Shown: piece by piece, positions 3,671 to 33,989 of the stretch
How the letters are laid out: every line of letters starts with the position of its first letter
Position numbering within the stretch: position 1 is the first letter of the stretch
Source of the DNA: Cyanidioschyzon merolae
Taxonomy: Eukaryota
Assembly: GCA_000091205.1 (NCBI GenBank)
Contig: AP006495.2
Strand: one strand, 5' to 3'
Length of the DNA: 64,000 bases
The notes under the pieces: model-generated
Told to the model about the DNA's origin: nothing
Database searches by the model: none
What the model saw: the letters and a program-made list of their open reading frames with translations, nothing else
Translations under genes and position numbers: made by a program

Positions 3671-6328
3671 CTACGAGAGGTCGAATCCGAAATTTTGGGT
3701 AATAGCATACTTCAGCTTCTCCCGCATGGCCTCTCGAGTCGAATATGGGGGGAGTTTGAGCAGATTCATGCACGTGGAGGCCGTGGGATACCGTGATGCG
3801 TCGTCACCAGCTTTTTGAATGCAAAACGGGGGGTTCAGATACTGAAACCCGAGCAGGGGTGCTCTTGGCGAGCTTGTCACGAATTGGAGAAGGGCTGCTC
3901 GCTCTGAGTCCGATAGATCTTCTTGCACAACTTGCCAAAACAGTTCAACCGTTCCCGAGTTCTCGGAGTATCCACCTGAGTATGTTACGTTGCTGCGCAA
4001 GTTGTCAATGTCAATCTTGCCAGAGCAATCGCCTGAGATCAACTCACGAAGCTCCCATTCATTGAACATCTGAATCCATTCTCTCTCGATGACATCGAAG
4101 AAACCGCTCATAAAGGCTGTCGTCTGTGCTTTGATCTGCCGATTCAGCCTATAGTCAGCTACGCGATGCATGTACTCCAGCCGATTGTCCCAAGTCACTG
4201 GAATGGAACTCCCTCCAGGAATCAGCTCCTTCTCAACTGCTTCCCCGAATTCATTGTCGACAACAGTAAATGTCAGACAAAGGTCTCCAAACGAGTTAGG
4301 ATCAGCATGCCGAAGAAATTTCAGATTTCGATGCAGCTCCGGATCCAGAGAACGCAAATCGTTAAGATCATTACTTATACCCAACAGTTTGCGTAAGAAG
4401 AATGATGCTATCGGGAGATCTACCAAGATCGCATCGTAGAGCGCCTTGCCCAGAATACGCCCAAGAAAAGAAAACTGTTCCAAATGATTCGACGGTGCGA
4501 TGACACTCGAGGCCGGATTAGGGAAAAGCTCCCCACCATCTGTTGCCTTAAATAGACCATAATGGGTCGGCGAGAATGCGAATCGAATCAGTTGATGCAT
4601 GAACTCTTTGAAGACACCACCTCCATCAACACCGGCCTCCTCAAGGCCGTACTCGTCCACGAATTTAACTCGAATATTCTCACGAAGTCTGGATCCCAGA
4701 GAGTTCAGTTGCGCAAAAGCATCCTCGACGATAAAGTTACGCCGTATAGTGATCCAAATCCCATTCATACCGAAGAAAGACTGACCTCCGCCGGCTCGCG
4801 CCTTTTCCTGTGCTATGCATCCGTGGAAGATGCGCACGCGCGTCTCAAAAGAGATGGAGAAGGGAGCCATTCGCAGCAGCGGCATACCGCTATTTTTCCG
4901 AACAGATTCACGCACGAACAGCTCCGGTGCCTTGCGTGCAGCCTGAACTTCCCAGAGCGACTCACGTTGTACTGTAAAGGGTCGCCTTGCATCCCTTGCC
5001 CATAGCGCTAGCAACAAGCGACTAGACGCCTGTAGAACGTCAGCCGCGGCCAAGTCCCATTTGTTCCGGCCAGTCGGGCGGGCACCTGTGCTTGTTGTGT
5101 AGAGTCTCCAAAACAGCTGTTCTTTCAACTCATTGATTATCTCCAGAACAAAGGACAGATTGGTCGCAGAGTAAAAGTCATCGTCGTCCATCACTAAGGT
5201 TGATACGCGGAAGGACTCACAGAAGAGTCGAAGCAAGGCCCCCGATGAAGAAATCATGAGCGAATGCCACATTTGACGGAGGTAGTCTCGGGAATGAGAG
5301 AATGCAAGGACAGCGCATACGCGGTGGTTCATAGCATCGTGCTTCTCCAATAGTTCCGCAAAACGCCTCCAGTTTTCCGGATCCCATTCGAGTGCGTGCA
5401 TCAAACTTTTGAGGAAAACGTCGCTCTGAGTTAGTTTTGAAGCGAGCTCGTCCAACGGACCGACCCGATCGACGACAAAGCTCAGCAAGAAAACGTGGTG
5501 TTTCGAGGATGGAAGCGACAGAGTGAGATCGCATATTCTGCGTATTGCACTCTTGCTAAGCGTAACTCCATGTTCTGCAATCAGTTTCGCTAAGCTTTCG
5601 CTGAACAAGTGCGCAGTGGCTGGCATGTCTATGTCATCACTAGTCATCACCAGTGTCGGTGCATCTATGAGGAACCTCCCGAACTCAGCGGATGGTCCAC
5701 ATATACGGCATATTTCCTTTGCAGATTCGCCAGTTGTGCGGCCTCGCATAAGCGCAAGGATGGTATTAGCGAACCGCTGCACGGCTGTAGCACAGCGTCG
5801 AGCATTTTCAAGAAGGAAGGCTTCATCGCCGAGCGCAGCAGCCGATATGAAAATATGGCCTTTTAAAGCTATCGAAACATAAGTACTGCGCACGAGTTCG
5901 CCGATAAGGCCTCGGTGTTCGTACCAGTGTAGCCGTGCCTTGTCATGCTGAGCTTTCGAAAGCTGGACAAGGAAACAGAGCGCACGCACAAATCGTACCG
6001 CCGCGTGCGTGTCGTATGGCAGCGGCCCCTCACTCTGAGCAAGATTCGCGACGCGTTCCACCAACTCCGCTTCTATTATTTTAGAAAGCCGTCTGCACTC
6101 GAAGTACTGCCGTGCCAGTGATTGGATGGCCACAGCTGACCTCTCTTGAGCGCGCTGGGCAGCCCGACGTTCACGCTCCAGACGGGCCTTTAAAAGAATG
6201 CTCTCTCTCGAGGGAGCAACGTTAGATGCGCCACGGAGCGAGATAGCGCTTCTTCCCCCTGTGTCAAACAGCTTCGAAGCAGTGGCTCTCCTCGACGAGA
6301 ACTCACTCTGCATCATACAACACAGCAA
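3671..6328 (-). CDS. HECT-domain E3 ubiquitin ligase, UBE3B/UBE3C (Hul5)-like with N-terminal IQ motif
   Basis: 885-aa uninterrupted ORF. The C-terminal HECT domain ends ...RYPTASTCMNLLKLPPYSTREAMREKLKYAITQNFGFDLS, with the catalytic Cys in TCMNLL. An IQ-like motif AVAIQSLARQYFECRRLSKI lies near the N-terminus. Confidence 0.85.
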   Translation of the reverse strand: MLCCMMQSEFSSRRATASKLFDTGGRSAISLRGASNVAPSRESILLKARLERERRAAQRAQERSAVAIQSLARQYFECRRLSKIIEAELVERVANLAQSEGPLPYDTHAAVRFVRALCFLVQLSKAQHDKARLHWYEHRGLIGELVRSTYVSIALKGHIFISAAALGDEAFLLENARRCATAVQRFANTILALMRGRTTGESAKEICRICGPSAEFGRFLIDAPTLVMTSDDIDMPATAHLFSESLAKLIAEHGVTLSKSAIRRICDLTLSLPSSKHHVFLLSFVVDRVGPLDELASKLTQSDVFLKSLMHALEWDPENWRRFAELLEKHDAMNHRVCAVLAFSHSRDYLRQMWHSLMISSSGALLRLFCESFRVSTLVMDDDDFYSATNLSFVLEIINELKEQLFWRLYTTSTGARPTGRNKWDLAAADVLQASSRLLLALWARDARRPFTVQRESLWEVQAARKAPELFVRESVRKNSGMPLLRMAPFSISFETRVRIFHGCIAQEKARAGGGQSFFGMNGIWITIRRNFIVEDAFAQLNSLGSRLRENIRVKFVDEYGLEEAGVDGGGVFKEFMHQLIRFAFSPTHYGLFKATDGGELFPNPASSVIAPSNHLEQFSFLGRILGKALYDAILVDLPIASFFLRKLLGISNDLNDLRSLDPELHRNLKFLRHADPNSFGDLCLTFTVVDNEFGEAVEKELIPGGSSIPVTWDNRLEYMHRVADYRLNRQIKAQTTAFMSGFFDVIEREWIQMFNEWELRELISGDCSGKIDIDNLRSNVTYSGGYSENSGTVELFWQVVQEDLSDSERAALLQFVTSSPRAPLLGFQYLNPPFCIQKAGDDASRYPTASTCMNLLKLPPYSTREAMREKLKYAITQNFGFDLS

Positions 6329-7129
6329 ACAAAGCGTGTACGTTTACGAAAACGGTCGTTGAAATACAGAACGCAGGCAGAAAGATTGATGTCATTCGGC
6401 CGCAACGCCAGAGTTTTCCGGATCTATCTCGACACCGTAAAACTTGCAGACCTCACCGTAGGCTCCCCGAGAGCTGCATACTCGTCAGAGACAGCTCCGA
6501 GGACATGTAGACATAAGCCTGGTGTATAAGTCCACCTGCCGTAGCGCTTATTTTAAGTGATTTGAGAGCTTCACTCTCGTTTGGCAAGGCTTCGTTGACA
6601 AGTTAGCATAAACCTTTTGCTGACCACGACGTTTCAGAGCGAAAGCCCGGGCGGCTACAGGGTTGCAGCCTCTTTAGTGAATGCTTCGCTGACTTTTTGT
6701 CATAAAGCTCTTGATTTGAGCTGCTTTTCTGAGGACGCGGTTGAAGTAGGCAGCGGTTAAGCAGCAGCAGCAGCCCAGATGGGCCTTTACATCTAACTTA
6801 TGCTTCGAGCACGCTTTTTGAGTGCGTTATTCTAGCCACCAGCGGCGTTCTTCCGCAAAGTTTCCGCAAAACGAAGAAAATTTAGAGCTGCTGTTACTCG
6901 ACCAAGTGTTACCTCTCTTTTAAGCTACGATATTTGCGGCTTTCAGTGCACAGTGCACACTACATCAGTCTCAGACTGAAATGAAACACTGAACTGAACG
7001 CTCTGATCCTGCGTATCGATTTTCAGAACTTTGTTTAGGTGTCCAAACTCCATTTTCGAATTGCGGCAGTAAGTGCTTTTGTATTCACATGTAGTTTCAC
7101 AGTTCTCTGTCCTATTTTCGACTTTACTC

Positions 7130-7270
7130 GGTCGAGTCCTTGCTGTCGAAATTTGTTAGGTCACTGGTATCAAGAAGAGTCGCGACGCCCTCGAACACCT
7201 GGTTCGTAACGCGATCAGTATAGGTATTCAATTCTCACATATAGGCCTCGACTGTTCTTCTTTCCTTCTA
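7130..7270 (-). repeat. dispersed repeat family 1, partial inverted copy
   Basis: atcaagaagagtcgcgacgccctcgaacacctggttcgtaacgc...gtataggtattc is the reverse complement of the family-1 core gtgctcgagggcgtcgcgaaccatcgtcttgat. Related inverted fragments occur at about 1440..1560 and 47030..47110. Confidence 0.45.
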
Positions 7271-9790
7271 GCATACGTAAAAGTCTTAATCGTAATTTTT
7301 TTTCGATCCTTCTTCTCCATGTCGACTCGTGAGCTCGGCAACTCTCGCTGCTTGATTTAAAAGTAAAAGTACTTTAGACCGTCGGATTAAGATTGTTCAC
7401 AAACTCGTGCCTTACGCTCACAGAACTCGGCTTGCCAGTTGATCATTTCCATTCGAAAGGAAATCTTCCGCATTCTGTGGCCATCAGTCATACGCTATTC
7501 CACAGTACCACAATAACTCGTAAACGATGTGCTCCCAGAGGCTCCCTTTTCCCCTGTTTGCAAGGAAACGGGCAATGTCTTCGGGCTTTCACCATCGTAG
7601 AGATCGCTTCCAGTAGAGTGCGTCTCCGCATTTTCACGACGCGTGCGTACATCGACGGAAATTGCTCGACTTGTTCTGAAGCTTGGTTTTCCTTCCGGTG
7701 CATGTTGCATCATTGACTGCACCGCGTTCTACAGATTCTTTGTCGAATGGAACAGAACGCACAGGTGTGTGCAGCGGGCAGAGTAGGCGCCGAAGAGATC
7801 GCCCAGAACATGCCCCACGGCCGATAGGTCCGACATTACGGCCAAATATATTGGAGTGCATTGAGTGGAGCCTTCCGAGCCCGTCACAGTCATGTTCCGA
7901 GAGATGGTGCGATCTTTCAGACGCCATATGAGGGCGCCCGGAAGGGACTGCTTGATTGGTATATTCGAACAGCTAACCACAGTCAAGCATCACAGCAGCG
8001 AAAGGCGCACCGAGATCGTATGCGAAGGAGATGGAAACAGCACGCGAGGCGTCGAACGCGACTTCCGCATGCTCATGAAATGGGCAGAAAACACCATGAA
8101 GCGCTGGACTCTGGTATTCAACTCCGCCACTAGCATCCCTGAACTGCTACCGTGGAAGCTGAAGTGACTGGAGAAACCGTATCATTTGAAGCATGAGCAA
8201 AAATAGAGGAAAAGGAAGCACTCAAAGTTAATGTCTGCAAAGTGGGCGTCGATGACGGTGGGAAGACACCCAAACTTAAGACGCACGCCCATGTTAGGGG
8301 AACGCTGCCATTCAATCCGGAAACCGGTGTAAATGATATATTCGCCGTCAATTGAAGAAGACATATCATGAATGGCGCAAAACACTCTTTAGACAGTTTT
8401 CCGGATCTTGGCGCGCAATCCGCGTTTGTGACACAGAACAATAAATCGAAATTGCGAGATTAAATTGTTCAGATAATGGCAGTGAAATTCGGATGCCTAA
8501 TTTTAATTTTGAGATAGTTGCGCTCATTATCGAATACATTTTATGTTATTCACTGAATGAAGCGCATCTTCTTGACATCAAAGTGCAATTTATGCAGCGT
8601 TTTCAAGATGACCTTGCGGCGAAGTGTGCAACAAAGGGCACAGGGCTTTTAAATCATTCAGTAGAGATTTCCTTCTACGTTCGGTTTTAAAAGCGTCGTA
8701 GTCGGTTCAGTGTAGAAATCTTCAGCTGCGCTGCATATTATCGAACAAGTCCTTTCTAAGCTTCATTACATCTTCAGATAGCATCAGAGCGATCTTTCTT
8801 ACTTACAACATCTGCGCCTCGGAACTTTTCCCGGTTGGTGACGAAACAAACAAGTGAGTTTCCGAGTTTGCCTGATATTCACTTCGGCGGGAGACGGCTC
8901 TTCATTTACTTTTGGCTGTATAGGCAGATATCGCTGTCTTGGAAGTATCCTTTCCAAGATCGTGCACCGAACACTTCGACAGCTGAAGTTCGATTCAAGA
9001 ATATCTTTGAAAGGGGTGAAACATGTATTTCCCTAGCGCACTGATCGTATTTTGCCGGACTTCCATGCCCACGCTTATACGATCCCCTTGTCAAGAGAGC
9101 GTTGATCCTGTGAAGTGGTCCGAAGAGATAGCACTTGCCGTTTTACCCACAGGCGAATTTGCTAGGAAATTTCACATCTTCGGTCCACAGAAAATATCAA
9201 ACTCGCCTAAGGCTGCTTTCACCTTTCGGGACCACCTCGCTCTATCCGAGAGATATTGCACTCAGGAGATATTGGTCGCCATAAAACGTTGCTTCGAGTA
9301 CTGAAAGTCCCGTCATCCACGCTTTTCTAATCTTTGATTGAACGACATTTTTTTCTTTCTGTCTCTTATCGAAACGCAGAAAAACTGCTGTTTACAATGG
9401 TCACCTATGCAGGTTGGAGCTTTTTGGGAGCTTCTCTCTGTCTCAATACTGAGCCCTCCACGAAAGCTCTGCGTTTCAAACGGTCCTGGAGCTGTGCGGT
9501 GCCGTGCGCGAATCGTAGGCTCAAGCCGACGCCCTCTGTGGAACGGCAACGCGGTTCTGTCTCCGTTCAGCGACCGCACCGGCGCTACGGCGCAATTGCG
9601 GTCGCTCTCGGCAGGTTCGGCACACGATAGGACGTATCAAACGACCAGAATATCCGAGAAGAAGTATAGGAAATGTAAATTGGAGGTAGGGGTTTGATGG
9701 ATACTTCACCGCGCACTGAAAAAACACACAAAAAAAGTAAGCAAAGAAAAAGCGCACAGTCGGAGAATTCTTGCCTACCTAAACATTTTG

Positions 9791-10879
9791 TCACTTTAAA
9801 AATCTGCGCGAATCGCACGGCACCTTCGCACGGTCTAAAATTGGATGTATCGACTTTCGCCAGAGTGCAGGGAATAGCAACAAAATGATCATTGTTGGAT
9901 AGCCTGCAGGGAGTTGTGGACTTTCTACTGTTGAAACGAGTAAATGATACGGCCTATCGGCATGTCGATGATGGTCCGCATGACGCTGCAATTTGAACAA
10001 GATATAATTTGTTAGGCGATGTGAGGAATTCCAACTGTGACAGTTGGAAACAGGCTCATAAATCTTCTCACCATTCGGAAGGACGTTAATGACAGCTCTC
10101 TCGAGCCCGTAATGCTCAATGTAGTTGACCATTTCAAGAAGGGTTATAGCCGTGAAACAATGGAGCAAGAAAAGGCAACATGCTCGGAGGCCGTAGAGGA
10201 AAAATATTGTCAGAAACCAAAGAACAGAGCAAGCGAAATATCTAAGTATCCGATTCTCAACGCAGAAAGTTTGAAAGCCTCGCTTCGCTAATCTCTCTCT
10301 TTCTATTTTCCAAGCGCTGCGAAAGGATCCGACGACTGTACGGGGGAAGAACGCATAGAATGATTCGCCATAGCGGGCCGTTGCGGGATCCTCTGGCGTT
10401 GCAACTCGCCTGTGGTGTCCGTAAAGATGCTCAATATAAAAATGTCCATAACACACAGAAACCAAGATTGCCTTCCCAAGCGCTACTTCAGCAGCGTTTC
10501 GTTTGTGAAAAAGTTCGTGGCTCACATTCACCCCTTGCGCAGCCAAAAGGCCCGCAGTTAGACCAAGGCCAATAAAAGATGAAACGCTCAGATCCACTCC
10601 TTCGCTTGCTAGCCTTGCTGCCCAGAAGAGAAAGGACCATTGCACGGCCGGCCATACGTACAGCACAACCCTGTACGCCAACTTATGGCGTCCACTATGT
10701 AGTTCGGCATCACACGGGTTCTCTTCGTCGAGGCCAAGAACAGCATCTAAAGCCGGTATGAGCACAAAAGCGAGGAATATCGACGCGAACGCTGTTGACC
10801 ACTTCTTGAAAATGAAACTCGTAAAAGAAACAAGGGGCACAATGTAAGCAACACTATACACTAAGGCTGTTGCTGTCAT
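9791..10879 (-). CDS. AlkB-family integral-membrane alkane 1-monooxygenase homolog (fatty acid desaturase/hydroxylase superfamily)
   Basis: 362-aa ORF that is hydrophobic with several predicted TM segments. It carries all four AlkB signatures in order: HELFHK (His box 1), EHLYGHH (His box 2), NYIEHYGL (HYG motif) and LQRHADHH (His box 3). Confidence 0.8.
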   Translation of the reverse strand: MTATALVYSVAYIVPLVSFTSFIFKKWSTAFASIFLAFVLIPALDAVLGLDEENPCDAELHSGRHKLAYRVVLYVWPAVQWSFLFWAARLASEGVDLSVSSFIGLGLTAGLLAAQGVNVSHELFHKRNAAEVALGKAILVSVCYGHFYIEHLYGHHRRVATPEDPATARYGESFYAFFPRTVVGSFRSAWKIERERLAKRGFQTFCVENRILRYFACSVLWFLTIFFLYGLRACCLFLLHCFTAITLLEMVNYIEHYGLERAVINVLPNGEKIYEPVSNCHSWNSSHRLTNYILFKLQRHADHHRHADRPYHLLVSTVESPQLPAGYPTMIILLLFPALWRKSIHPILDRAKVPCDSRRFLK

Positions 10880-13008: not shown

Positions 13009-14841
13009 ATGGAACTGAGCTCAGGGAACACGATCGAAACGGTGACGAGTGATCAGGATCTCAGGAATGAGACAGTGGGCTCGGATGATGGATCTGTCTT
13101 GAGCAAAAACGAGCTAAAGCGGCGTATGAAGGCGCAGCGCCTTGCTGCAGAGCGCGAACTGCGGCAGTCGAGCCGAGTTCAGCAACATCAGGCGGCTGCA
13201 CGCGATGCTTCCTCAGGAAACCAGGAAGCGGACGAAGAACTGATGACGTCCCAGCAGTATTTTAGCCACCGATGTCGAGTTGTCGAGCACTTTCGCTCCA
13301 GCGGAGAGGATCCCTACCCCCATAAGTTCTACGTGACGTGCAGCGTACCGCAGTTCATCGCCAAGTACTCATACTTGGGTGTAGGTGAGCGCCTCGATGG
13401 GGAAGAGGCTTTGGCAGGTCGCATTCGCTCGCGGCGCTTGTCTGGTTCGCGATTATTTTTTTACGATATTTTCGCTGATGGAACTAAAGTGCAAGTCATG
13501 GCCGACGCACGGTTGGATACTGCAGGCAATTTTGCCACTGTGCACAGTGCACTTCGCCGCGGGGACATCATAGGTGTCCGCGGCTATCCAGGACGAACGA
13601 AAACAGGTGAACTTAGTATCTTTCCCGTCGAGACGAGGCTGCTGTCACCGTGTCTACACATGCTGCCGAAACCGCACCAGATGCTAAGCGATCCAGAAAC
13701 ACGCTATCGCCAACGTTATTTGGACCTCATCGTGAACCGCGAGGTTCGCCCGATATTTGAACTCAGAGCAAATGTCATTCGCTTCATCCGCAAATTCCTG
13801 GACGAACGTGGTTTTCTCGAAGTCGAGACGCCGATCATGAATGCTGTTGCAGGTGGCGCGAACGCGAGGCCGTTTGTGACCTTTCATAACGAGCTTGGGG
13901 TCAATATGTATCTTCGCGTTGCACCAGAGCTCTACCTGAAAGAGCTCGTGATCGGCGGCCTGGATCGAGTTTATGAGTTGGGCCGAAACTTTCGAAATGA
14001 GGGTATCGATATGACGCACAATCCGGAGTTTACAGCCTGTGAATTTTACGCTGCATATCTGGACTATAAGGATTTGATGGATCTGACAGAAGCGATGTTG
14101 AGCTTGTTAGTGAAGGAGCTGACTGGGCATCTGAAAATCAAGTATCATCCCGAAGGGAGGCATGCTCTGGAGAACGAGGTCGAGATCGATTTTACCCCAC
14201 CGTTCAAACGGATCTCCGTCATGGATGCTCTGCGCGAAGCGCTTCCGAGCGAGCTGCGACCGCTATTTCCCGAATCTGAGCAACTCGGTACAGACGAGTC
14301 GCGCTTCCGTTTGGAGACTATTTGCGAGCGAGTGGGTGTAGTTTGCCCGCCTCCGGTCACAGAAGCACGCCTGCTAGATAAGCTTTTCGGGGCGCTCGTG
14401 GAGCCGAAGTGCGTTTCGCCCACGTTCGTTTGCGACCATCCGGAAATCATGAGCCCACTCGCAAAATGGCACCGGAATCGACCCGGCCTCACGGAACGGT
14501 TTGAACTTTTCGTGAATGGGCGCGAACTCTGCAATGCATACACAGAACTTAACGATCCCTTTGTGCAGAGGGAACGATTCCTGAGCTCACAACGGGACGC
14601 GGACAAAGGCGACGCGGAAGCAATGGCGAAAGATGAAGATTTCTGTACGGCGCTGGAATATGCACTTCCGCCAACTGCTGGCTGGGGCATTGGTATCGAC
14701 AGACTCGTGATGCTGCTCGCCGATCAGAACAACATCAAGGAGGTCGTGCTTTTCCCGGCACTGCGACCGCGCCCTAACTCTGACGGCGACGAGGCAGCAG
14801 AACTGCGAGATCGCGTTCAAGACCTGAAAGTTAAAGAATAA
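13009..14841 (+). CDS. KARS: lysyl-tRNA synthetase, class II, eukaryotic type with Lys-rich N-terminal tRNA-binding extension
   Basis: 610-aa ORF containing the OB anticodon-binding region and class II motifs ([31 protein letters not shown]). The N-terminal [16 protein letters not shown] helix is typical of eukaryotic LysRS. Confidence 0.95.
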
Positions 14842-26218: not shown

Positions 26219-27097
26219 ATGTGGCTCTACGCATGGTTTGAACGATTTTGGCTCCACTTTACGACGTCTTTCTCGCCGTTCACGCTTCACACTCTCTTTA
26301 CGTTCGCGATTCATGAGTTTGCGTACTGGGGCGTGTACCTGCCGTACGCGCTCATGGACAGAAGCAAGTTTTTCCGCCGCTGGAAGTTGCAGGAAAATAC
26401 TTACGGGTATTCTAGCTCAAGCAAACAGTCACAGAAGCTACCGAAAGAAGACGCGCAGAAGTTTTGGCGCTGTGTATTGTACGTAGCTGCGAACCACGTG
26501 TTCCTTGTGTTGCCGCTGATTCTGGTAACGCACCCATTGTTCGAGAAGCTCGGCACAACGCACGGTTTGCCGCTGCCGTCTCTAAGGGAGTTTATCGTGC
26601 AGATTCTCTTTTGCCTCTTTGTTGAGGATATGTGCTTCTACTGGGGTCATCGCGCGTTACATACTCCTTGGCTTTATCGATACATTCATGCTATTCATCA
26701 CCAGTACACAGCACCGTTCGGTGCGGTCGCGGAATTCGCCCATCCCATCGAAGTTATATTCCTCGGTATGTCCACTGTCGCCGGACCGCTCATTATAGGC
26801 CCGCACCTGCTCACGCTATGGGGCTATCTAATGGTGCGTTGCTGGCAGACGGTAGACTGCCACTCTGGGTACGATCTTCCATGGTCGCTGAATCGATGGT
26901 TTCCGCTGTACGGCGGTGCGCGTCAGCACGACCATCACCATAAGACTTATTCTGGCAATTATGCTTCAATGTTTATCCACATGGACTGGTTATTCGGAAC
27001 TGATAAGGCATGGAGGCTCTCGTTACAGAAGGCGAAAGCGAAACACGTTCGAGCTGTCGCTCAGGAGTTGGCTGTGAGTTTCAGTGCTGAGCGATAA
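26219..27097 (+). CDS. fatty acid hydroxylase superfamily enzyme, methylsterol monooxygenase (ERG25/SMO)-like sterol desaturase family
   Basis: 292-aa membrane protein with histidine boxes HRALH, HAIHHQY and HDHHH in the order and spacing typical of the ERG3/ERG25 family. Confidence 0.8.
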   Translation: MWLYAWFERFWLHFTTSFSPFTLHTLFTFAIHEFAYWGVYLPYALMDRSKFFRRWKLQENTYGYSSSSKQSQKLPKEDAQKFWRCVLYVAANHVFLVLPLILVTHPLFEKLGTTHGLPLPSLREFIVQILFCLFVEDMCFYWGHRALHTPWLYRYIHAIHHQYTAPFGAVAEFAHPIEVIFLGMSTVAGPLIIGPHLLTLWGYLMVRCWQTVDCHSGYDLPWSLNRWFPLYGGARQHDHHHKTYSGNYASMFIHMDWLFGTDKAWRLSLQKAKAKHVRAVAQELAVSFSAER

Positions 27098-28604
27098 CTA
27101 TAGGAGAGCAGACGAGTGATTGGTACGCAAGGCACTCGCATGAATGCGGTTGGAGGTTGGTCTTCTTGTACATTATATTGGAGCGAACAACTCTGCCGAG
27201 GTGACACCAAGCATCAAATATGAAAGTATCACCGATGAGCTTCCGGGCAGATACTGCTGAATCGGAAGATTGCATAAAGTAGGGACTCGTATCCAAGTGC
27301 ACCCAGACAGGTGATCAGCGTTACTGCCCAAGCGCCAACACGACCCAGCAACGAAAGCAGGAGCCCTCATTACGGGCCACTGGGGAAACGAATGTCAGCG
27401 AGGCACCGGTCCGCGCTTTCCAGACGCCTTGCGTGAACAATATCGACGGCATCCATCGCTTCGCGACGAGCGCCGACGTAGGCCCGGTGCGGTTAAGCAT
27501 GCAGCGCGGATACCCAGGGGCCAGCCCAGCACGCGTGATCAGTTCGTAAACTATATCTTTGCACCTGGAAATGTAACGTGCATTTGACCTGAAGTCGATT
27601 TATCGACAGTCTCTGCACCACGCGTCCAATGATCTTCGAATAGTATGCAAACGGAGCTTCTGAGATAGTTCTCCAACGCCAGAGCCTGGAGAGTGGTGCA
27701 TTGGCATTAGAAGCAGGATCGCATTTGCTTGGCTTCGAGAGAGAAGTAGCCGTTTAGCTTCGCTGTTGTGCACAGGTTTGTGTGGTTAAACCTTTCCACG
27801 TAAGAGCGTAGTGTCCAGCAATAAGGTTACGTTTCCTCGCGCAGTCCTAGTGCGGTGGAAGCTGGGGTATCTGCGTGTAAATTAGACACCGAGTTAAGGA
27901 CCCAACAGTCGTATGCGGAGCGCTAGCTTCACCATGCCTCCGCGAAGGCTTTCCGAACCTTTCTTGCACAAAGAATTGTAAGGTTCAGCGTGAACTGTCG
28001 TAAAATGCAGCGATTGGCAGGAAAGCGAAAGCGGTTCACGCTTTGATGTTGTCTGCTGCTCGTCGCCAGAGCAGAGAGCGCTATAATTTGCATTAGCGCG
28101 CACTGACAAACTCTGCTCGAAATATCAAACAAGTATGTGCTCCGGTTTAAGGTACAGCGCTCTGTTGCGAGACGCAAGACGCAAATTATAGGCTGCTTGT
28201 TGCAGCATGGTCACTGAATAGCGCGCTTTGGTGGTGGCCTCCCTCGTGAAAGCCGGCTCTGTTGTACAGGCGCGGCGTCAGTGCATTGGCGTTAGACAGC
28301 GCTCGGGGAGTGTCAGAGTGATATCGAGTGCTCGCCAACGGTTCTCCTCGGATGCATCAAGGTAACTGCATGAGCCAGGCGAAGCGACTTGCACTTCTCG
28401 CTACAGGCTCATACCTAGATCGACTTCTGGGACGCGATGTGGTAGGCGTACGCGACGTACCACAGGTTCGAGAAGGAATCCCGCCAAGCGAGGCACATAT
28501 AGCCACGTCTATCGTGCCGCTGTCGCACCTCAGCCCCATACTTGCAACACTTACAGGTAAGTAAAGATGCAGCCTCCTTCAGCATACCGCGGCGAATTCC
28601 ACCA

Positions 28605-30106
28605 ACGTGCGACAATAATGGAACTGTTTCCGCCAAGCTTGCTCGACATACAAAGTCAATGTTCGGGTCGTTTCCGACTATCATGACCACTAGTCCTCGC
28701 ATGATCTTGCAGCGACTGCTTGATTCTTTCTCTCTTCTTTACGCTCATAAGCACGTCCGTCCCTCAATGCCCTCATGTTTCGTTACCAGCAGCTGAGGAT
28801 GTTCGTCGCAGCTTGCAAGCCCCGATTCCGCTGCTCGCAGCGGTTGTCAACGTATTCCATGCACACGCTGAGGTTGCCATGGACGCTCCGCTTGCCCCAA
28901 GGATCGTCTTGGCCCTCGGCCTCGGCGCACCTCTCGCAGCGGCGACACGTTACTATGGGTAGGTGTTCCCCAGCGTCCGCGATACCTCCTCCAGCTCCGA
29001 ACGCCGCACATTTGCGTACGGAGACTCGCCTCGTCGCGCGGCACACAACCATGACATGTACAGAAGGCTCTTCTCGATGCTATGCGACGTTTTCGCACCC
29101 GGTGCCGTACTCCGTGATCAGGGACTTTGTCTGAACTTTCTCCTCGACATGTGCGTTGGCCGCTGCACGCGCAATCGCACGCTGCCTTGTTCGAGAACTC
29201 ACCAGGTGATACGCGTCACGGCCTTGGTGACGTTCCAAATCGGTTTGCCCCGAGGAGAAGACGTTCGAATGTATCACAAGACTCCTCCACCGTTCTCCGC
29301 TGCTTCCGGCAAAGAGGCGGTTTTGTGCAACCGATGGTGTCCATGGAAGAAAACCAGTGCGGGAAGGAAGGGCCAGGCTGGCGATCGCGTCGAGCGATAC
29401 CGACTCCGCTGCGCTGCGGTTGTTCAAAGCGCTGCCGGAGTCTCGGCTCTGACAGACCACTGCCACGACTCAGGTTCGAGTCCAAGACCGTTTTCCGTGC
29501 AAGCAGAAGAGATGGGAGCCTTGGCGGGCCCCCGCCCAGGGTGGCTGCACGCGGCTGCTATTGAATGCCGTTTCGTCGATGGCGCCAAAGCGAGGACGCT
29601 TTATCTGTTGGACGGGATCGACCTTGTAAGGTGACGAGTGCAGGGAGCTCTCGGCGCGAGCCCGTGGAGAGGCTGACAACAAGCGGCGTCGCATTTCTCC
29701 TTGTCAACCCAGCTGTGCAGAACGCTGCGCCCTCCAGTCGTCCCGAAACACAAAGATGAGATATGTGAAGCACGCGTGATTTGAGCTTTCCATACGTAAG
29801 GACGGAGAAGAGTGGAAGCTGGTTCGTATGAGCTGGCTCGTGATGTCGGTTCCTATACGATGCCGTGCTCGAGGGCGTCGCGAACCATCGTCTTGATTCT
29901 CGTGATGCAACGAGCACTAGCGACAAAAGGTTGGCGGAGCCGCTCCGAAGCGACAACCGAGCATCCAAAACCTGGTCATGAATCCATACGCGCCCATTGC
30001 TACATTTAGGATGTCGAGTCTGTACATGTAGAGAAAGTCCAGGGAGAATCGAAATGTAAACAGAGCAGGTAGGTCAGTGTTCTTTTTTGTTATGATACGG
30101 ATATTG
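28605..30106. repeat. segmental direct duplication, copy 1 (about 1.5 kb, >99% identical to 32412..33913)
   Basis: The ORF track lists identical ORFs at a constant offset of 3807 bp (e.g. 28963..29634 = 32770..33441). Both junctions can be read directly in the sequence, and only a few substitutions separate the copies. Confidence 0.9.
29600..30070 (+). repeat. dispersed repeat family 1 copy forming the 3' end of segmental-duplication copy 1 (an identical copy at 33407..33877 lies in copy 2)
   Basis: Contains gaaacacaaagatgag...ggagaagagtggaagctggttcgtatgag...cgtgctcgagggcgtcgcgaacc...cgctccgaagcgacaaccgagcatcc...gatgtcgagtctgtacatgtagagaaag. Confidence 0.6.
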
Positions 30107-30640
30107 GCGGCGTTTCCAGAAAGACTCAGAGACCAAACGTTCAGGCACGCTGGAAACCATCAGTACATGCATCTCATCCCAGAACTTGGCACCTAGGGTG
30201 TGCTGAGGCCCGCCTATTATCTTTCCTTGCAGGTCTGAACCCGCGATCGGCGAACTACTCGGTTTCGGAATGCAGGATACGATTATGCGTGGCGCCAGGT
30301 TGGCATTTTGTCCCGCTCGCGAAAGCACTGTATCCTCCTCGACGAGTTTCGAGCTAGTATCGCACAAATGCTGTCCAATTTCATCCCGAATCTTCATCAA
30401 AAGCGCCATGGTCCCTGGCGAGGCGTCGACCAGCGATTCCTTGGTTCGGTGCAGCGGGCATTGATGAGTGGCGAGCACGCGTGCCCTTCCCTCCCAACAG
30501 GCACGCGTGTAGTTTGCTCGTACGGCGGGTTCGCTGAACACCCAGCGGTACCTTCGAGCAGACTCGAGCTCTGTTTTAAGGACCACGAAGTCTCGGAAAT
30601 GCTTCAATGATACAAATGAAAAAGTTAAAACATTTCGCAA
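30074..30640 (-). CDS. hypothetical protein (188 aa), unknown function
   Basis: ORF lying between duplication copy 1 and the TerC gene. It is moderately protein-like with no recognised motif, and its 3' end overlaps the duplicated segment. Confidence 0.25.
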   Translation of the reverse strand: MRNVLTFSFVSLKHFRDFVVLKTELESARRYRWVFSEPAVRANYTRACWEGRARVLATHQCPLHRTKESLVDASPGTMALLMKIRDEIGQHLCDTSSKLVEEDTVLSRAGQNANLAPRIIVSCIPKPSSSPIAGSDLQGKIIGGPQHTLGAKFWDEMHVLMVSSVPERLVSESFWKRRQYPYHNKKEH

Positions 30641-31142: not shown

Positions 31143-32291
31143 TCATGATTTTTCATTTGTTCCTGAGAAAACAAAACCCGCAGAGTATCCGACTGCAAGG
31201 GTTCCCAGAATCACGGACAGCGAGATTGTCGTGCTAGCCTCGTACCCAAAGTATCCCAAGGCTAGTTTGGACCCAATGAAACCCAGTACCACAGCTAGGG
31301 TCTGTTCAATGTATCGGAAATTGCGGATGGCTTCCTGTATCACAAAGTACCAGCTTCTCAGGCCCACAATCGCCATCAAATTCGAAACATACACAACAAG
31401 CGGATCCCGTGAGATACCCAGGCACGCAGGTACCGAGTCCAGGGCGAATATGACATCCGTTAGCTCAACGCAGACCAGAACCAGCAAGAGCGGTGTCGCA
31501 GTGGTGGCACCATTCTTCAAACTAGTAAAAAATCGATCACCATCGTAGTCGTCTGAAACTGGAAGCAGTGCGGTCACTGCGCGGACGATGAAATTCTCGC
31601 GAATGCCCTCCTCGTTAGATTCATCGTCGGCCTCGGAGTCCTGGAAGCTGGACCAGAGCATACGTCCCGAAGAAATGAGCAAAATTGCAGCAAAAACGAG
31701 ACTGATTGTCCGAAAACGCTCCATCAGCGCAACACCTGTGAACACGAATATCGCTCGAAACACGGCCGCTCCGAGAATTCCATAGCTTAGAACTTTCTCC
31801 TGCAGGTTTTTCGGTACACGGAAGAAACGAAACAAGAGTAGAAATACGAACAGATTGTCGACTGATAGACTTTGTTCGACAACATATGCTGCCACGTATT
31901 CCATTCCTCGATCAGTGCCCTTCGTTCCGAAAAAAATGAGGCCAACAAGCAGACCTGCTGCCACAGAGATCGCGGTGCGCTGACGATCCCAGCTGGTCAC
32001 TTGGCGCTCTGAGGAACTGAGTTCATCTTTGAATTCTCCCCCTAGTGTCTTTTCATTCGGTGCTGTATGTTTGCTATTTTCACCGGAGCTAGATCGTCCA
32101 AGTGAGCCCCCGCGGTGCCTCTCCTTTTGCCTTACAAGCTGCAGCGCGGCGAGCCCCCTTCGTCGCATAGTTCCCGGTACACGCCCAGAGGTGCACAGCG
32201 TTCGCAAATTGCTTTTGTACGTCTGCGTCCATGTGAAGCATTTACAACCCACAGGCACGAAGCATTGACGTTCACCTGCTTGATAAGGCAT
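31143..32291 (-). CDS. terC: TerC-family integral membrane protein (plant/algal thylakoid TerC-like)
   Basis: 382-aa ORF. The core MEYVAAYVVEQSLSVDNLFVFLLLF and repeated LSVDN/ALDSVPA-type segments match the TerC family. Confidence 0.8.
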   Translation of the reverse strand: MPYQAGERQCFVPVGCKCFTWTQTYKSNLRTLCTSGRVPGTMRRRGLAALQLVRQKERHRGGSLGRSSSGENSKHTAPNEKTLGGEFKDELSSSERQVTSWDRQRTAISVAAGLLVGLIFFGTKGTDRGMEYVAAYVVEQSLSVDNLFVFLLLFRFFRVPKNLQEKVLSYGILGAAVFRAIFVFTGVALMERFRTISLVFAAILLISSGRMLWSSFQDSEADDESNEEGIRENFIVRAVTALLPVSDDYDGDRFFTSLKNGATTATPLLLVLVCVELTDVIFALDSVPACLGISRDPLVVYVSNLMAIVGLRSWYFVIQEAIRNFRYIEQTLAVVLGFIGSKLALGYFGYEASTTISLSVILGTLAVGYSAGFVFSGTNEKS

Positions 32292-32411
32292 TCACGAGTC
32301 CGCACCGTGGAGACCGTATTAAACGTGCATCTTACGACGCCCATCGTGAATGAGACGCACGCCCTGAATTTGAAATGGGATATTCTGGACATGGTATGTG
32401 TTGGATATCCC

Positions 32412-33913
32412 ATGTGCGACTATAATGGAACTGTTTCCGCCAAGCTTGCTCGACATACAAAGTCAATGTTCGGGTCGTTTCCGACTATCATGACCACTAG
32501 TCCTCGCATGATCTTGCAGCGACTGCTTGATTCTTTCTCTCTTCTTTACGCTCATAAGCACGTCCGTCCCTCAATGCCCTCATGTTTCGTTACCAGCAGC
32601 TGAGGATGTTCGTCGCAGCTTGCAAGCCCCGATTCCGCTGCTCGCAGCGGTTGTCAACGTATTCCATGCACACGCTGAGGTTGCCATGGACGCTCCGCTT
32701 GCCCCAAGGATCGTCTTGGCCCTCGGCCTCGGCGCACCTCTCGCAGCGGCGACACGTTACTATGGGTAGGTGTTCCCCAGCGTCCGCGATACCTCCTCCA
32801 GCTCCGAACGCCGCACATTTGCGTACGGAGACTCGCCTCGTCGCGCGGCACACAACCATGACATGTACAGAAGGCTCTTCTCGATGCTATGCGACGTTTT
32901 CGCACCCGGTGCCGTACTCCGTGATCAGGGACTTTGTCTGAACTTTCTCCTCGACATGTGCGTTGGCCGCTGCACGCGCAATCGCACGCTGCCTTGTTCG
33001 AGAACTCACCAGGTGATACGCGTCACGGCCTTGGTGACGTTCCAAATCGGTTTGCCCCGAGGAGAAGACGTTCGAATGTATCACAAGACTCCTCCACCGT
33101 TCTCCGCTGCTTCCGGCAAAGAGGCGGTTTTGTGCAACCGATGGTGTCCATGGAAGAAAACCAGTGCGGGAAGGAAGGGCCAGGCTGGCGATCGCGTCGA
33201 GCGATACCGACTCCGCTGCGCTGCGGTTGTTCAAAGCGCTGCCGGAGTCTCGGCTCTGACAGACCACTGCCACGACTCAGGTTCGAGTCCAAGACCGTTT
33301 TCCGTGCAAGCAGAAGAGATGGGAGCCTTGGCGGGCCCCCGCCCAGGGTGGCTGCACGCGGCTGCTATTGAATGCCGTTTCGTCGATGGCGCCAAAGCGA
33401 GGACGCTTTATCTGTTGGACGGGATCGACCTTGTAAGGTGACGAGTGCAGGGAGCTCTCGGCGCGAGCCCGTGGAGAGGCTGACAACAAGCGGCGTCGCA
33501 TTTCTCCTTGTCAACCCAGCTGTGCAGAACGCTGCGCCCTCCAGTCGTCCCGAAACACAAAGATGAGATATGTGAAGCACGCGTGATTTGAGCTTTCCAC
33601 ACGTAAGGACGGGGAAGAGCGGAGGCTGGTTCGTATGAGCTGGCTCGTGATGTCGGTTCCTATACGATGCCGTGCTCGAGGGCGTCGCGAACCATCGTCT
33701 TGATTCTCGTGATGCAACGAGCGCTAGCGACAAAAGGTTTGCGGAGCCGCTCCGAAGCGACAACCGAGCATCCAAAACCTGGTCATGAATCCATACGCGC
33801 CCATTGCTACATTTAGGATGTCGAGTCTGTACATGTAGAGAAAGTCCAGGGAGAATCGAAATGTAAACAGAGCAGGTAGGTCAGTGTTCTTTTTTGTTAT
33901 GATACGGATATTG
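32412..33913. repeat. segmental direct duplication, copy 2 (immediately upstream of the TerC start)
   Basis: Same sequence as 28605..30106 shifted by 3807 bp. It diverges after gatacggatattg at 33913. Confidence 0.9.
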
Positions 33914-33989
33914 ACACATAAAAACTTTCTACGACTATGGAGGGGAAATGAATGCACTTGTGCAGACGCCTCCAAACCTTTTTAAGTGG

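Follow-up and report, generated by a model that had tools for sequence, protein, structure and literature searches.

A nuclear AlkB-family gene of bacterial type in the red alga Cyanidioschyzon merolae

Aerobic alkane degradation in bacteria relies mainly on AlkB, which is normally taken as a prokaryotic marker, including in environmental alkB surveys. Its archetype, from Pseudomonas putida GPo1, is a C5-C12 alkane omega-hydroxylase that works with AlkG and AlkT; it is encoded in a plasmid-borne operon and serves growth on alkanes. Haem P450s, the fungal CYP52 and the plant CYP86 and CYP96 enzymes, likewise hydroxylate long aliphatic chains, at the terminus or within the chain. The closest described structures are those of Fontimonas thermophila AlkB (FtAlkB), in the AlkB-AlkG fusion 8F6T and in 8SBB. 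Substrate-positioning leucines of 8SBB (L274, L315 and L318) line a hydrophobic tunnel (PMC10110569), and a small residue at the chain-length position of AlkB goes with substrates of C12 or longer. Here we describe an AlkB-family gene of the red alga Cyanidioschyzon merolae, located in a 64-kb window, by which we mean the whole stretch of DNA that was analysed. We consider it probable that this gene is an ancient bacterial AlkB, intact, constrained, nuclear and inherited in red algae, and that its product is a membrane diiron hydroxylase.

An intact AlkB gene among eukaryotic genes

The ORF listing of the window contains a frame of 362 aa plus stop that opens with an ATG (Table 1). The encoded protein is 100% identical to BAM81102.1 of C. 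merolae 10D, so the gene is already in the public annotation, and has been for years, under the product name ‘similar to alkane hydroxylase’ (BAM81102.1/XP_005537138.1). In-frame stop codons lie at most 10 codons 5′ of the ATG, and the N-terminus is therefore as read, barring an intron. The ORF is a real, intact nuclear gene of C. merolae. Literature searches brought up no paper dealing with a red-algal AlkB, whether of Cyanidioschyzon or of another genus; what they retrieved concerned plant MAH1 (a P450), chance co-occurrence in reference lists or reviews on bioremediation.

The gene is flanked by a HECT-domain protein gene (3671-6328, minus strand) and by a gene for a class II tRNA synthetase of the Lys/Asp/Asn type (13009-14841, plus strand). 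A sequence-only reading of this DNA had placed it between eukaryotic HECT and LysRS genes, and both neighbours were recovered by their domains. Apart from AlkB, the window holds 20 ORFs of 200 aa or more; fifteen match Pfam at E<=0.001, in each case a family that is typical of nuclear genes in eukaryotes, and the remaining five have no match at this threshold. The eukaryotic nuclear context proposed in that reading is thus borne out, as all annotatable ORFs in the window are of eukaryotic type and the contig carrying BAM81102.1 measures 866,983 bp. A search around the gene for repeats, tRNAs and mobile-element scars returned only short repeats at chance level and no tRNA.

Base composition is the evidence that could speak for a recent horizontal transfer confined to C. 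merolae, or for contamination or a chimeric assembly at this locus. The AlkB ORF ranks last of the window's 21 long ORFs in GC (0.473) and in GC3 (0.466, z ~ -3.3, compared with 0.517-0.648 in the others) and shows the largest codon-usage distance (1.07); the surrounding region, roughly 7-12 kb of the window, is itself lower in GC (0.46-0.48). The proposed match of the gene to its neighbours thus stands for the intron-free CDS but not for GC. However, AlkB GC3 is also at the low end among its neighbours in other Cyanidiophyceae, which makes the low value look like a property of the gene (e.g. low expression) rather than a foreign signature, and AlkB GC3 tracks the host (0.47, 0.48, 0.74 and 0.68). 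Orthologs with 53-71% identity are present in three other Cyanidiophyceae, two of which are syntenic with each other, no bacterial match listed exceeds 49% identity, and the Pfam matches of the other long ORFs are all of eukaryotic type. Finally, the identical protein and the gene order LysRS-AlkB-HECT are found on four metagenome contigs, 19-104 kb long and independently assembled, which excludes the chimera with bacterial DNA that the sequence-only reading had allowed for. A recent transfer, contamination or chimera is refuted as far as present data go, and we regard it as barely credible. The metagenome AlkB alleles differ at 2 synonymous and 0 non-synonymous sites, while their flanks carry 6-22 mismatches per 2 kb; the C. 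merolae gene is under purifying constraint.

Family membership, active site and fold

The protein matches the Pfam family FA_desaturase (5.6e-33). In a phmmer search of PDB sequences, two AlkB chains were its only matches at E<=0.01 (8f6t_A, 4.1e-72, and 8sbb_A, 8e-64, over ~320 residues), whilst an NCBIfam scan gave no match at E<=0.01 and is uninformative. By these PDB matches the protein is closer to characterised AlkBs than to other FADS-like families. Its relatives carry the source name ‘alkane 1-monooxygenase’. The AlphaFold2 (AF2) model, with a pLDDT of 95.1 and a pTM of 0.93, superimposes in Foldseek onto the FtAlkB-AlkG complex 8F6T with a TM score of 0.90 (RMSD 1.8 Å) and onto 8SBB with a TM score of 0.88 (RMSD 2.5 Å), and the next-best match has a TM score of 0.44. 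The model shows the AlkB-specific fold, six transmembrane (TM) helices and a cytosolic catalytic domain, unlike SCD1 and Scs7p.

Table 1. Features of the C. merolae AlkB gene and its product, with positions in the 64-kb window.
Feature	Position	Strand	Remarks
Complete intron-free CDS, C. merolae AlkB-family integral-membrane diiron hydroxylase (BAM81102.1)	9791..10879	-	Pfam, PDB phmmer, AF2, Foldseek
Predicted TM1 (aa 5-23) and TM2 (aa 27-48)	10736..10867	-	Protein begins with TM1, without N-terminal presequence
Ala37, chain-length-determining position	10769..10771	-	Equivalent to Ft Ile54 and P. putida GPo1 Trp55
Predicted TM3 (aa 67-92) and TM4 (aa 99-123)	10511..10681	-	AF2 model
His box 1, HELFHK (aa 121-126)	10502..10519	-	H121, H125 equivalent to FtAlkB His137, His141; invariant in 217/217
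His box 2, EHLYGHH (aa 150-156)	10412..10432	-	H151, H155, H156 equivalent to Ft His167, His171, His172
Predicted TM5 (aa 210-229) and TM6 (aa 231-256)	10112..10252	-	AF2 model
AlkB-type third motif, NYIEHYGL (aa 252-259)	10103..10126	-	E255, H256 equivalent to Ft Glu271, His272
His box 4, LQRHADHH (aa 297-304)	9968..9991	-	H300, H303, H304 equivalent to Ft His311, His314, His315

All four AlkB motifs claimed in the sequence-only reading are present in the ORF, in the order given there. The nine iron-ligating histidines, which AlkBs carry in four ordered motifs (HExxH, ExxxxHH, NYxEHYG and LQRHxDHH), correspond one-to-one with those of FtAlkB and are invariant in 217 aligned homologs, and the position of Glu255 (next to Fe2 in FtAlkB) is Glu in 216 of these. 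The full set of ten metal-site residues (PMC10113152) is kept in the C. merolae protein and does not vary among the 18 sequences that form the red-algal clade in our first tree, of 217 sequences; across the other 199 homologs it is near-invariant, the sole exception being one Gln at the Glu position. The substrate-positioning Leu just N-terminal of NYIEHYGL (L248) and the leucines of the LxxL motif that precedes and enters box 4 (L294 and L297) are the counterparts of the functionally tested L274, L315 and L318 of 8SBB (PMC10110569). They lie at the same offsets from E255 and H300 and are invariant or nearly so in a 66-sequence alignment. The protein is thus a member of the AlkB family, not a generic desaturase, as the sequence-only reading had held: its PDB matches are AlkBs only, the metal site is conserved, and the AF2 model has the AlkB fold.

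By homology, a diiron centre would be held by the nine histidines and the one glutamate, in a cytosol-facing catalytic domain carried by the six helices. A small acidic redox protein would deliver two electrons to AlkB for the activation of O2, and the terminal methyl group of a long aliphatic chain, entering sideways from the membrane through the hydrophobic tunnel, would be hydroxylated. Judged by its sequence, the protein is probably catalytically active, and the Ala at its chain-length gate leads one to expect substrates from about C12 upwards.

Red-algal homologs and the origin of the gene

Homologs of the C. merolae protein were found in Cyanidiococcus (KAK4531831.1, 71% identity), Cyanidium (KAK4536080.1, 53%), Porphyridium (KAA8496337.1, 41%) and Pyropia vietnamensis (MMPV_006138, 43%), and like it they are intron-free and nuclear and have the same active site. 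The homologs of Cyanidium, of the Cyanidiophyceae assembly GCA_041825655.1 and of Porphyridium have eukaryotic genes around them. The immediate surroundings differ from the LysRS-AlkB-HECT arrangement of C. merolae, since a PRPP synthetase gene adjoins AlkB in Cyanidium and lies two genes from it in GCA_041825655.1. A Cyanidium EukProt model (P0008, 564 aa) proved to be a mis-modelled fusion and was left out of later alignments.

Phylogeny was calculated by neighbour-joining (NJ) only. The Cyanidiophyceae proteins form a clade with 92.5-99% bootstrap support, and the wider clade with Porphyridium and Pyropia receives 77.5% with 217 sequences and 85-87% with 263 sequences under three distance corrections. 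The best named matches of the Porphyridium protein are Cyanidiophyceae proteins. Metagenome or SRA sequences make up 10 of the 20 members of the wider clade, and for the six whose contigs were examined the surroundings are eukaryote-like or uninformative. A search for clade-specific residues and indels yielded one diagnostic residue, R232, and therefore no independent support for the clade; with this and with NJ trees only, long-branch attraction between eukaryotic sequences may have contributed to the grouping. The homolog from Rhodelphis marinus falls outside the red-algal clade, and no Galdieria or florideophyte protein is among the named matches listed in three homology searches. The distribution within red algae is patchy.

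The named AlkB relatives are bacterial apart from a small eukaryotic set, in agreement with the sequence-only description of a bacterial-type enzyme with rare eukaryotic homologs. The best bacterial relatives are 36-49% identical to the C. merolae protein. A donor scan of 185,579 bacterial and archaeal genomes reached 47% identity at best, with scan patterns biased towards Actinomycetota, and thus no donor can be named.

Among bacterial sources, the cyanobacterial ancestor of the plastid would be the one expected under endosymbiotic gene transfer, with a product that works in the plastid with the conserved plastid rubredoxin RubA/RBD1 or with ferredoxin. The age of the gene and its being common to red algae would suit such an origin, as would two of the named bacterial matches, at ~44% identity, to Sericytochromatia and ‘Blackallbacteria’, non-photosynthetic relatives of Cyanobacteria. 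However, the Sericytochromatia matches are no closer than those from Verrucomicrobia, Proteobacteria or Actinomycetota, the bacterial sister group of the red-algal clade has less than 10% support in the NJ trees, and the best 120 matches of each of three homology searches include no named protein from an oxygenic cyanobacterium, the green lineage (green alga or plant) or a glaucophyte. Neither these matches nor the trees place Cyanobacteria as the nearest relatives of a gene shared with other Archaeplastida, and the endosymbiont-derived option offered by the sequence-only reading finds no backing here.

A role in the plastid would be consistent with the N-terminal extensions carried by Porphyridium, Pyropia and further clade members outside the Cyanidiophyceae; in several such members they measure 35-110 residues (e.g. 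MVFLPR..., MFFNSG...) and could be targeting peptides. It would also agree with the thylakoid association of fatty acid photodecarboxylase (FAP) and its hydrocarbon products in algae (bioRxiv 10.1101/2020.06.23.166330). These extensions are absent from the Cyanidiophyceae, in which all four proteins start at TM1 without any presequence; in C. merolae TM1 begins at about residue 5, and in the alignment the N-terminus is ~17 residues shorter than that of FtAlkB, residue 31 aligning to Ft residue 48. There is no room for a transit peptide, and the coupling to a plastid rubredoxin proposed in the sequence-only reading is thus unsupported. In addition, RubA is a membrane-anchored photosystem II assembly factor and not a known AlkB donor. 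We consider an endosymbiotic origin with a plastid role very unlikely, and the C. merolae protein is probably inserted into a non-plastid membrane, presumably the ER, with TM1 as signal anchor.

That the gene is common to other red algae points to an old acquisition. Sequence comparison speaks more for an ancient transfer from bacteria to red algae than for a recent one or for descent from the plastid: a gene of bacterial origin would have entered the red-algal lineage long ago and been inherited in Cyanidiophyceae, Porphyridium and Pyropia, its base composition drifting towards that of each host. The horizontal transfer of the sequence-only reading thus keeps its bacterial source but not a recent or lineage-specific event, as the C. 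merolae protein forms one clade with those of Cyanidiococcus, Cyanidium, Porphyridium and Pyropia. The transfer was probably ancient.

Electron donor, substrate and comparison with described enzymes

No rubredoxin is fused to the C. merolae protein, and a six-frame translation of the window contains no rubredoxin motif; the one CxxC...CxxC match lies within the HECT ORF, in a different frame, and was rejected as spurious. Two of the six rubredoxin-docking Arg positions of FtAlkB are kept as Arg or Lys. Across the red-algal clade two docking positions are mostly Glu and Pro/Ala, with FtR284 replaced by Glu in 11 of the 18 members. With the docking arginines mostly replaced, a classical rubredoxin partner may not apply. 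The net charge of the catalytic domain is nevertheless +6, like that of bacterial AlkBs (mean +5.95), and an acidic rubredoxin-like partner is still compatible with it. Since the charge of the red-algal clade does not differ significantly from that of the other sequences (p = 0.12), we rejected the docking-Arg changes as evidence for a changed partner.

The altered docking positions enter into the possibility that the AlkB fold was recruited in the red-algal clade to oxidise another lipid (an acyl lipid, a fatty acid or alcohol, the side chain of a sterol, or a chain of the isoprenoid or phytol type), with a eukaryotic donor such as cytochrome b5. Catalysis in the FADS-like superfamily is plastic (PMC9485055), and the true substrate may therefore not be an alkane. 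The lack of a presequence would fit insertion into the ER, where cytochrome b5 is the usual donor, and no alk-type pathway genes lie beside AlkB within the window. Against this, the protein shares its active site and its substrate-positioning leucines with true AlkBs, rubredoxin docking in FtAlkBG is described as non-specific electrostatics, for which the domain charge is suitable, and nothing positive points to any particular alternative substrate. We consider such a recruitment unlikely.

For an AlkB acting on alkanes, one candidate substrate is at hand by analogy: red-algal FAPs produce C15-C17 alkanes and alkenes (bioRxiv 10.1101/2020.06.23.166330). A more specific scenario, in which a bacterial AlkB was kept for perhaps a billion years and rewired to a eukaryotic setting, with no presequence, with most of the docking arginines lost and possibly with a non-rubredoxin donor, to omega-hydroxylate the alga's own membrane hydrocarbons, the C15-C17 FAP products, seems to us quite unlikely. 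If true, a eukaryote would for the first time be seen to turn over hydrocarbons by means of AlkB, and a missing ‘sink’ for algal alkanes would have been found. More generally, the gene is a concrete candidate for the fate of the hydrocarbons made by FAP, and an environmental ‘alkB’ signal, for instance from acidic hot springs, can partly be eukaryotic. C. merolae supports homologous recombination and offers a tractable eukaryote in which to ask for the redox partner of AlkB and its role outside alkane catabolism. The family assignment is unchanged by these consequences.

Compared with described systems, the algal protein is most like FtAlkB, with a Foldseek identity of 36% to 8F6T and 34% to 8SBB and with the nine histidines, the glutamate, the LxxL leucines and the six-TM topology in common. 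It differs in lacking a fused rubredoxin, in the replacement of four of the six docking arginines, in its shorter N-terminus and in extra residues (3 + 2) in the loop after NYIEHYGL, and its gene is eukaryotic nuclear without an alk operon. With GPo1 AlkB it shares the four signature motifs and the family (general knowledge and PMC10113152), whereas at the chain-length gate GPo1 has Trp55 and the algal Ala37 is like that of long-chain AlkBs; the growth on alkanes served by GPo1 AlkB is of no obvious need to an acidophilic photoautotroph. Eukaryotic FADS-like enzymes (ER and plastid desaturases and sphingolipid hydroxylases) have the Pfam family PF00487 and a His-rich diiron site in common with AlkB (PMC10110569), but AlkB is set apart by a distinct fold and by a ninth His, in the NYxEHYG motif, and none of these enzymes is among the PDB sequence matches at E<=0.01. 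The likeness to CYP52, CYP86 and CYP96 is a functional analogy in the predicted chemistry, as these are unrelated haem enzymes whereas the algal protein is a non-haem diiron protein of the bacterial type.

Sequence, active site and fold

The four AlkB motifs listed in the sequence-only reading are all present, in the order given there, in a single 362-aa reading frame. In-frame stop codons lie no more than 10 codons upstream of the ATG, which fixes the N-terminus, barring an intron. The encoded protein shows 100% identity to BAM81102.1 / XP_005537138.1 ([quoted passage not shown]), and JGI names the identical protein, carried on an 866,983-bp contig, "alkane 1-monooxygenase". The gene is therefore not new: it is an annotated AlkB-family member in public databases. 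A full-text literature search, which had most subscription journals outside its reach, found no paper discussing an AlkB from C. merolae or any other red alga.

Features of the window and motifs of the AlkB ORF
Feature	Position	Strand	Remark
HECT-domain protein	3671-6328	-	Pfam; neighbor of AlkB
HECT-AlkB interval	6329-9790		3.4 kb; no ORF >=200 aa, no tRNA; GC ~0.46
AlkB ORF, ATG start, 362 aa	9791-10879	-	ORF listing of window
HELFHK motif	aa 121-126	-	first in order within AlkB ORF
EHLYGHH motif	aa 150-156	-	second in order within AlkB ORF
NYIEHYGL motif	aa 252-259	-	third in order within AlkB ORF
LQRHADHH motif	aa 297-304	-	fourth in order within AlkB ORF
Class II Lys-type tRNA synthetase (LysRS)	13009-14841	+	Pfam; neighbor of AlkB
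FA_hydroxylase gene	26219-27097	+	PF04116, 1.7e-27; ~15 kb from AlkB
Direct repeat, copy 1	28601-30111		1,511 nt; 99.1% identical to copy 2
223-aa ORF in copy 1	28963-29634		no Pfam match
TerC-family gene	31143-32291	-	flanked by the repeat copies
Direct repeat, copy 2	32408-33918		start-to-start 3,807 nt
223-aa ORF in copy 2	32770-33441		no Pfam match
MRS2-like magnesium transporter	51511-53235	-	divergent pair, ~2.7 kb apart
MRS2-like magnesium transporter	55896-57200	+	divergent pair

The protein matches Pfam FA_desaturase (5.6e-33), and an NCBIfam scan gave no match. A sequence search of the PDB at E<=0.01 returned the two solved AlkB chains only, 8f6t_A (4.1e-72) and 8sbb_A (8e-64), with about 320 residues aligned, a match to the family far beyond chance. 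Residues were mapped by HMMER alignment to the PDB chain and transferred onto the numbering of the Fontimonas thermophila AlkB-AlkG (FtAlkB) study (PMC10113152). All nine iron-ligating histidines (H121, H125, H151, H155, H156, H256, H300, H303 and H304) and the active-site glutamate (E255) are kept; in an alignment of 217 homologues the histidines are invariant and the glutamate occurs in 216. Mutagenesis has shown that L274, L315 and L318 position the substrate (PMC10110569); their counterparts L248, L294 and L297 show little or no variation across 66 aligned sequences. That alignment was the input for an AlphaFold2 model (mean pLDDT 95.1, pTM 0.93), which superimposes on 8F6T with a TM-score of 0.90 and an RMSD of 1.8 Å and on 8SBB with 0.88, compared with 0.44 for the next PDB match in Foldseek. 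These results bear out the proposed identity, the ORF agreeing with AlkB in every sequence and structure comparison examined. Judged from sequence and model, the protein belongs to the AlkB family, with catalysis itself a prediction.

The Foldseek matches ranking after the two AlkBs, 8xks_K and 8xqw_M (probability 1.00, TM 0.44, 12% identity), are subunits of the Chlamydomonas chloroplast Orf2971/Ycf2-FtsHi import-motor complexes. They are presumably FADS-like membrane subunits with only remote similarity to AlkB.

Genomic setting and composition

The proposed nuclear context was upheld, since both the HECT and LysRS neighbors were confirmed and the remaining Pfam matches are of eukaryotic type. 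The products of the other long ORFs with a match include Pho88, FA_hydroxylase, TerC, NYN-domain, UBA3-like E1, DNA polymerase eta, Trx-UBA-UBX, ketoacyl synthase, two MRS2-like, MOCS3-like and cullin proteins, a set typical of a eukaryotic nuclear genome; 5 of the 20 long ORFs other than AlkB in the window have no Pfam match. Four metagenome contigs of 19-104 kb, each assembled independently, carry the identical AlkB protein in the same LysRS-AlkB-HECT order. Compared with the window, these alleles show two synonymous substitutions and no non-synonymous ones in 1089 nt, as against 6-22 mismatches in every 2 kb of their flanks. Both contamination and a chimeric assembly with bacterial DNA at this locus are excluded. 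For a genome as compact as that of C. merolae, the HECT-AlkB interval is a long intergenic stretch, and gene callers placed only ORFs of 65-107 aa in it on the metagenome contigs.

The gene had also been described as matching its neighbors in GC, which it does not. With a GC of 0.473 and a GC3 of 0.466 (0.517-0.648 in the other long ORFs; z about -3.3), it has the lowest GC3 and the largest codon-usage distance (1.07) in the window, and lies within a lower-GC stretch. Since AlkB GC3 is also lowest or nearly lowest among its neighbors in the two other Cyanidiophyceae examined, and the gene appears to be old, we infer that low GC3 is a property of the gene (weak codon selection, low expression) and not a mark of recent import.

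Elsewhere in the window, the 1,511-nt direct repeat looks like a recent segmental duplication. The product of the FA_hydroxylase gene, like AlkB a membrane diiron enzyme, is of the type found among sterol or sphingolipid hydroxylases or methyl oxidases; the gene is probably unrelated to AlkB function.

Homologues and origin

We searched the databases three times, using as queries the AlkB proteins of C. merolae and Porphyridium and a profile built from 16 sequences of the red-algal clade, and considered the best 120 matches of each search. Homologues were found in Cyanidiococcus yangmingshanensis (71% identity), the Cyanidiophyceae assembly GCA_041825655.1 (66%), Cyanidium caldarium (53%), Pyropia vietnamensis (43% over 79% of the query) and Porphyridium purpureum (41%). 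Among the matches listed, those with names beyond a small eukaryotic set were bacterial "alkane 1-monooxygenases" at no more than 49% identity, and neither a Galdieria nor a florideophyte protein was named. When 185,579 prokaryotic genomes were scanned with sequence patterns, which were biased towards Actinomycetota, the best identity was 47%.

In neighbor-joining trees (100-200 bootstrap replicates), the Cyanidiophyceae proteins form a clade with 92.5-99% support. The wider clade including Porphyridium and Pyropia received 77.5% with 217 sequences and 85-87% with 263 sequences under each of three distance corrections; its bacterial sister group has less than 10%. All organism-assigned members are red algae. 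Ten further members are metagenome or SRA sequences; the contigs of the six examined carry few called genes, and La- or GT61-domain neighbors on two of them look eukaryotic. Only one residue, R232, is specific to the clade, and long-branch attraction is a possible cause of the grouping. AlkB-like sequences also occur in transcriptomes of heterotrophic protists, namely Rhodelphis marinus (P0139), a member of the sister lineage of red algae, Colponema vietnamica (P0165), Gefionella okellyi (P0033), Cafeteria (P0047) and Amoeba proteus (P0131). All five fall outside the red-algal clade at poorly supported positions, and may stem from separate transfers or from contamination by prey or symbionts.

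AlkB lies among eukaryotic genes in Cyanidium, GCA_041825655.1 and Porphyridium. The first two share a block of RETICULATA-like, ribosomal L3, CRT-like, glutaredoxin and PRPP synthetase genes with AlkB at its end (homologue loci L001/L002, from GCA_041825655.1 and a JGI metagenome, and L003, from Cyanidium caldarium, around 8001-9116). The neighborhood in C. merolae is different, so the gene was relocated in one lineage. Its GC3 follows that of the host (C. merolae 0.47, GCA_041825655.1 0.48, Cyanidium 0.74, Porphyridium 0.68), which argues for long residence in red algae.

Taken together, the tree, search, neighborhood and GC3 results favor a single ancient transfer from a bacterial donor to the red-algal lineage, probably followed by vertical descent and losses. 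The integrated horizontal transfer proposed earlier thus holds in that the gene is nuclear and of bacterial type, but it would be an old acquisition common to red algae and not an isolated event. There is no sign of the alternative, an endosymbiont (plastid) origin: no oxygenic cyanobacterium, green alga, plant or glaucophyte is named among the best 120 matches of any search, and MAGs of Sericytochromatia and "Blackallbacteria" are no closer than Verrucomicrobia, Proteobacteria or Actinomycetota.

Membrane location, redox partner and substrate

By homology with FtAlkB, the protein would be membrane-embedded with its catalytic domain towards the cytosol. TM1 stands directly at the start of all four Cyanidiophyceae proteins, and residue 31 of the C. 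merolae protein pairs with residue 48 of FtAlkB, so the bacterial N-terminus exceeds the algal one by about 17 residues. This leaves no space for an N-terminal targeting sequence, plastid or mitochondrial. The simplest inference is that TM1 acts as a signal anchor for insertion into a non-plastid membrane, the ER or another, so that the suggested pairing with a plastid rubredoxin is unlikely in C. merolae. Seven clade members outside the Cyanidiophyceae (P0038, P0133, P0161, P0148, P0021, P0134 and P0136) have extensions of 35-110 residues before TM1, as delimited by start codons that gene callers chose. Some have Phe-containing starts that resemble transit peptides of red algae (MVFLPR..., MFFNSG...), and the extension of Pyropia is Ala/Thr/Pro-rich. 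Targeting may differ among red-algal lineages, or these start codons may be miscalled.

Of the six rubredoxin-docking arginines of FtAlkB, one is retained in C. merolae (R127) and one is a lysine (K199); V, Y, E and P occupy the remaining four positions. In the red-algal clade, 11 of 18 members have Glu at the FtR284 position and 15 of 18 have Pro or Ala at the FtR287 position; both positions are Arg in all 11 rubredoxin-fused AlkBs of the alignment. The net charge of the catalytic domain, +6, is nevertheless indistinguishable from that of bacterial AlkBs (mean +5.95; red-algal clade versus others, p = 0.12), and rubredoxin docking on FtAlkB is described as non-specific electrostatics (PMC10113152). 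The acidic proteins rubredoxin, ferredoxin and cytochrome b5 are all candidate partners. A search of the 64-kb window gave no rubredoxin motif.

By the same homology, the diiron centre would be reduced and then activate O2, and the terminal methyl group of an aliphatic chain entering laterally from the bilayer would be hydroxylated (PMC10113152, PMC10110569). The chain-length-determining position is Trp55 in P. putida GPo1, Ile54 in FtAlkBG and Ala37 in C. merolae; a small residue there accompanies substrates of C12 or longer (PMC10113152, PMC10110569). A plausible, hypothetical endogenous substrate would be the C15-C17 alkanes/alkenes made by algal fatty acid photodecarboxylase (FAP), chain lengths with which Ala37 is compatible. 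The candidate draws on FAP of the red algae Galdieria and Chondrus, for which this production has been demonstrated (bioRxiv 10.1101/2020.06.23.166330), and not on a C. merolae FAP. Another lipid is a serious alternative, the superfamily being catalytically plastic (PMC9485055).

Compared with textbook AlkBs, that of C. merolae is a eukaryotic nuclear gene with neither an alk operon nor a fused or adjacent rubredoxin, and its rubredoxin-docking arginines are mostly replaced. It also differs in having no obvious catabolic role; growth on alkanes is of no obvious use to an acidophilic photoautotroph.
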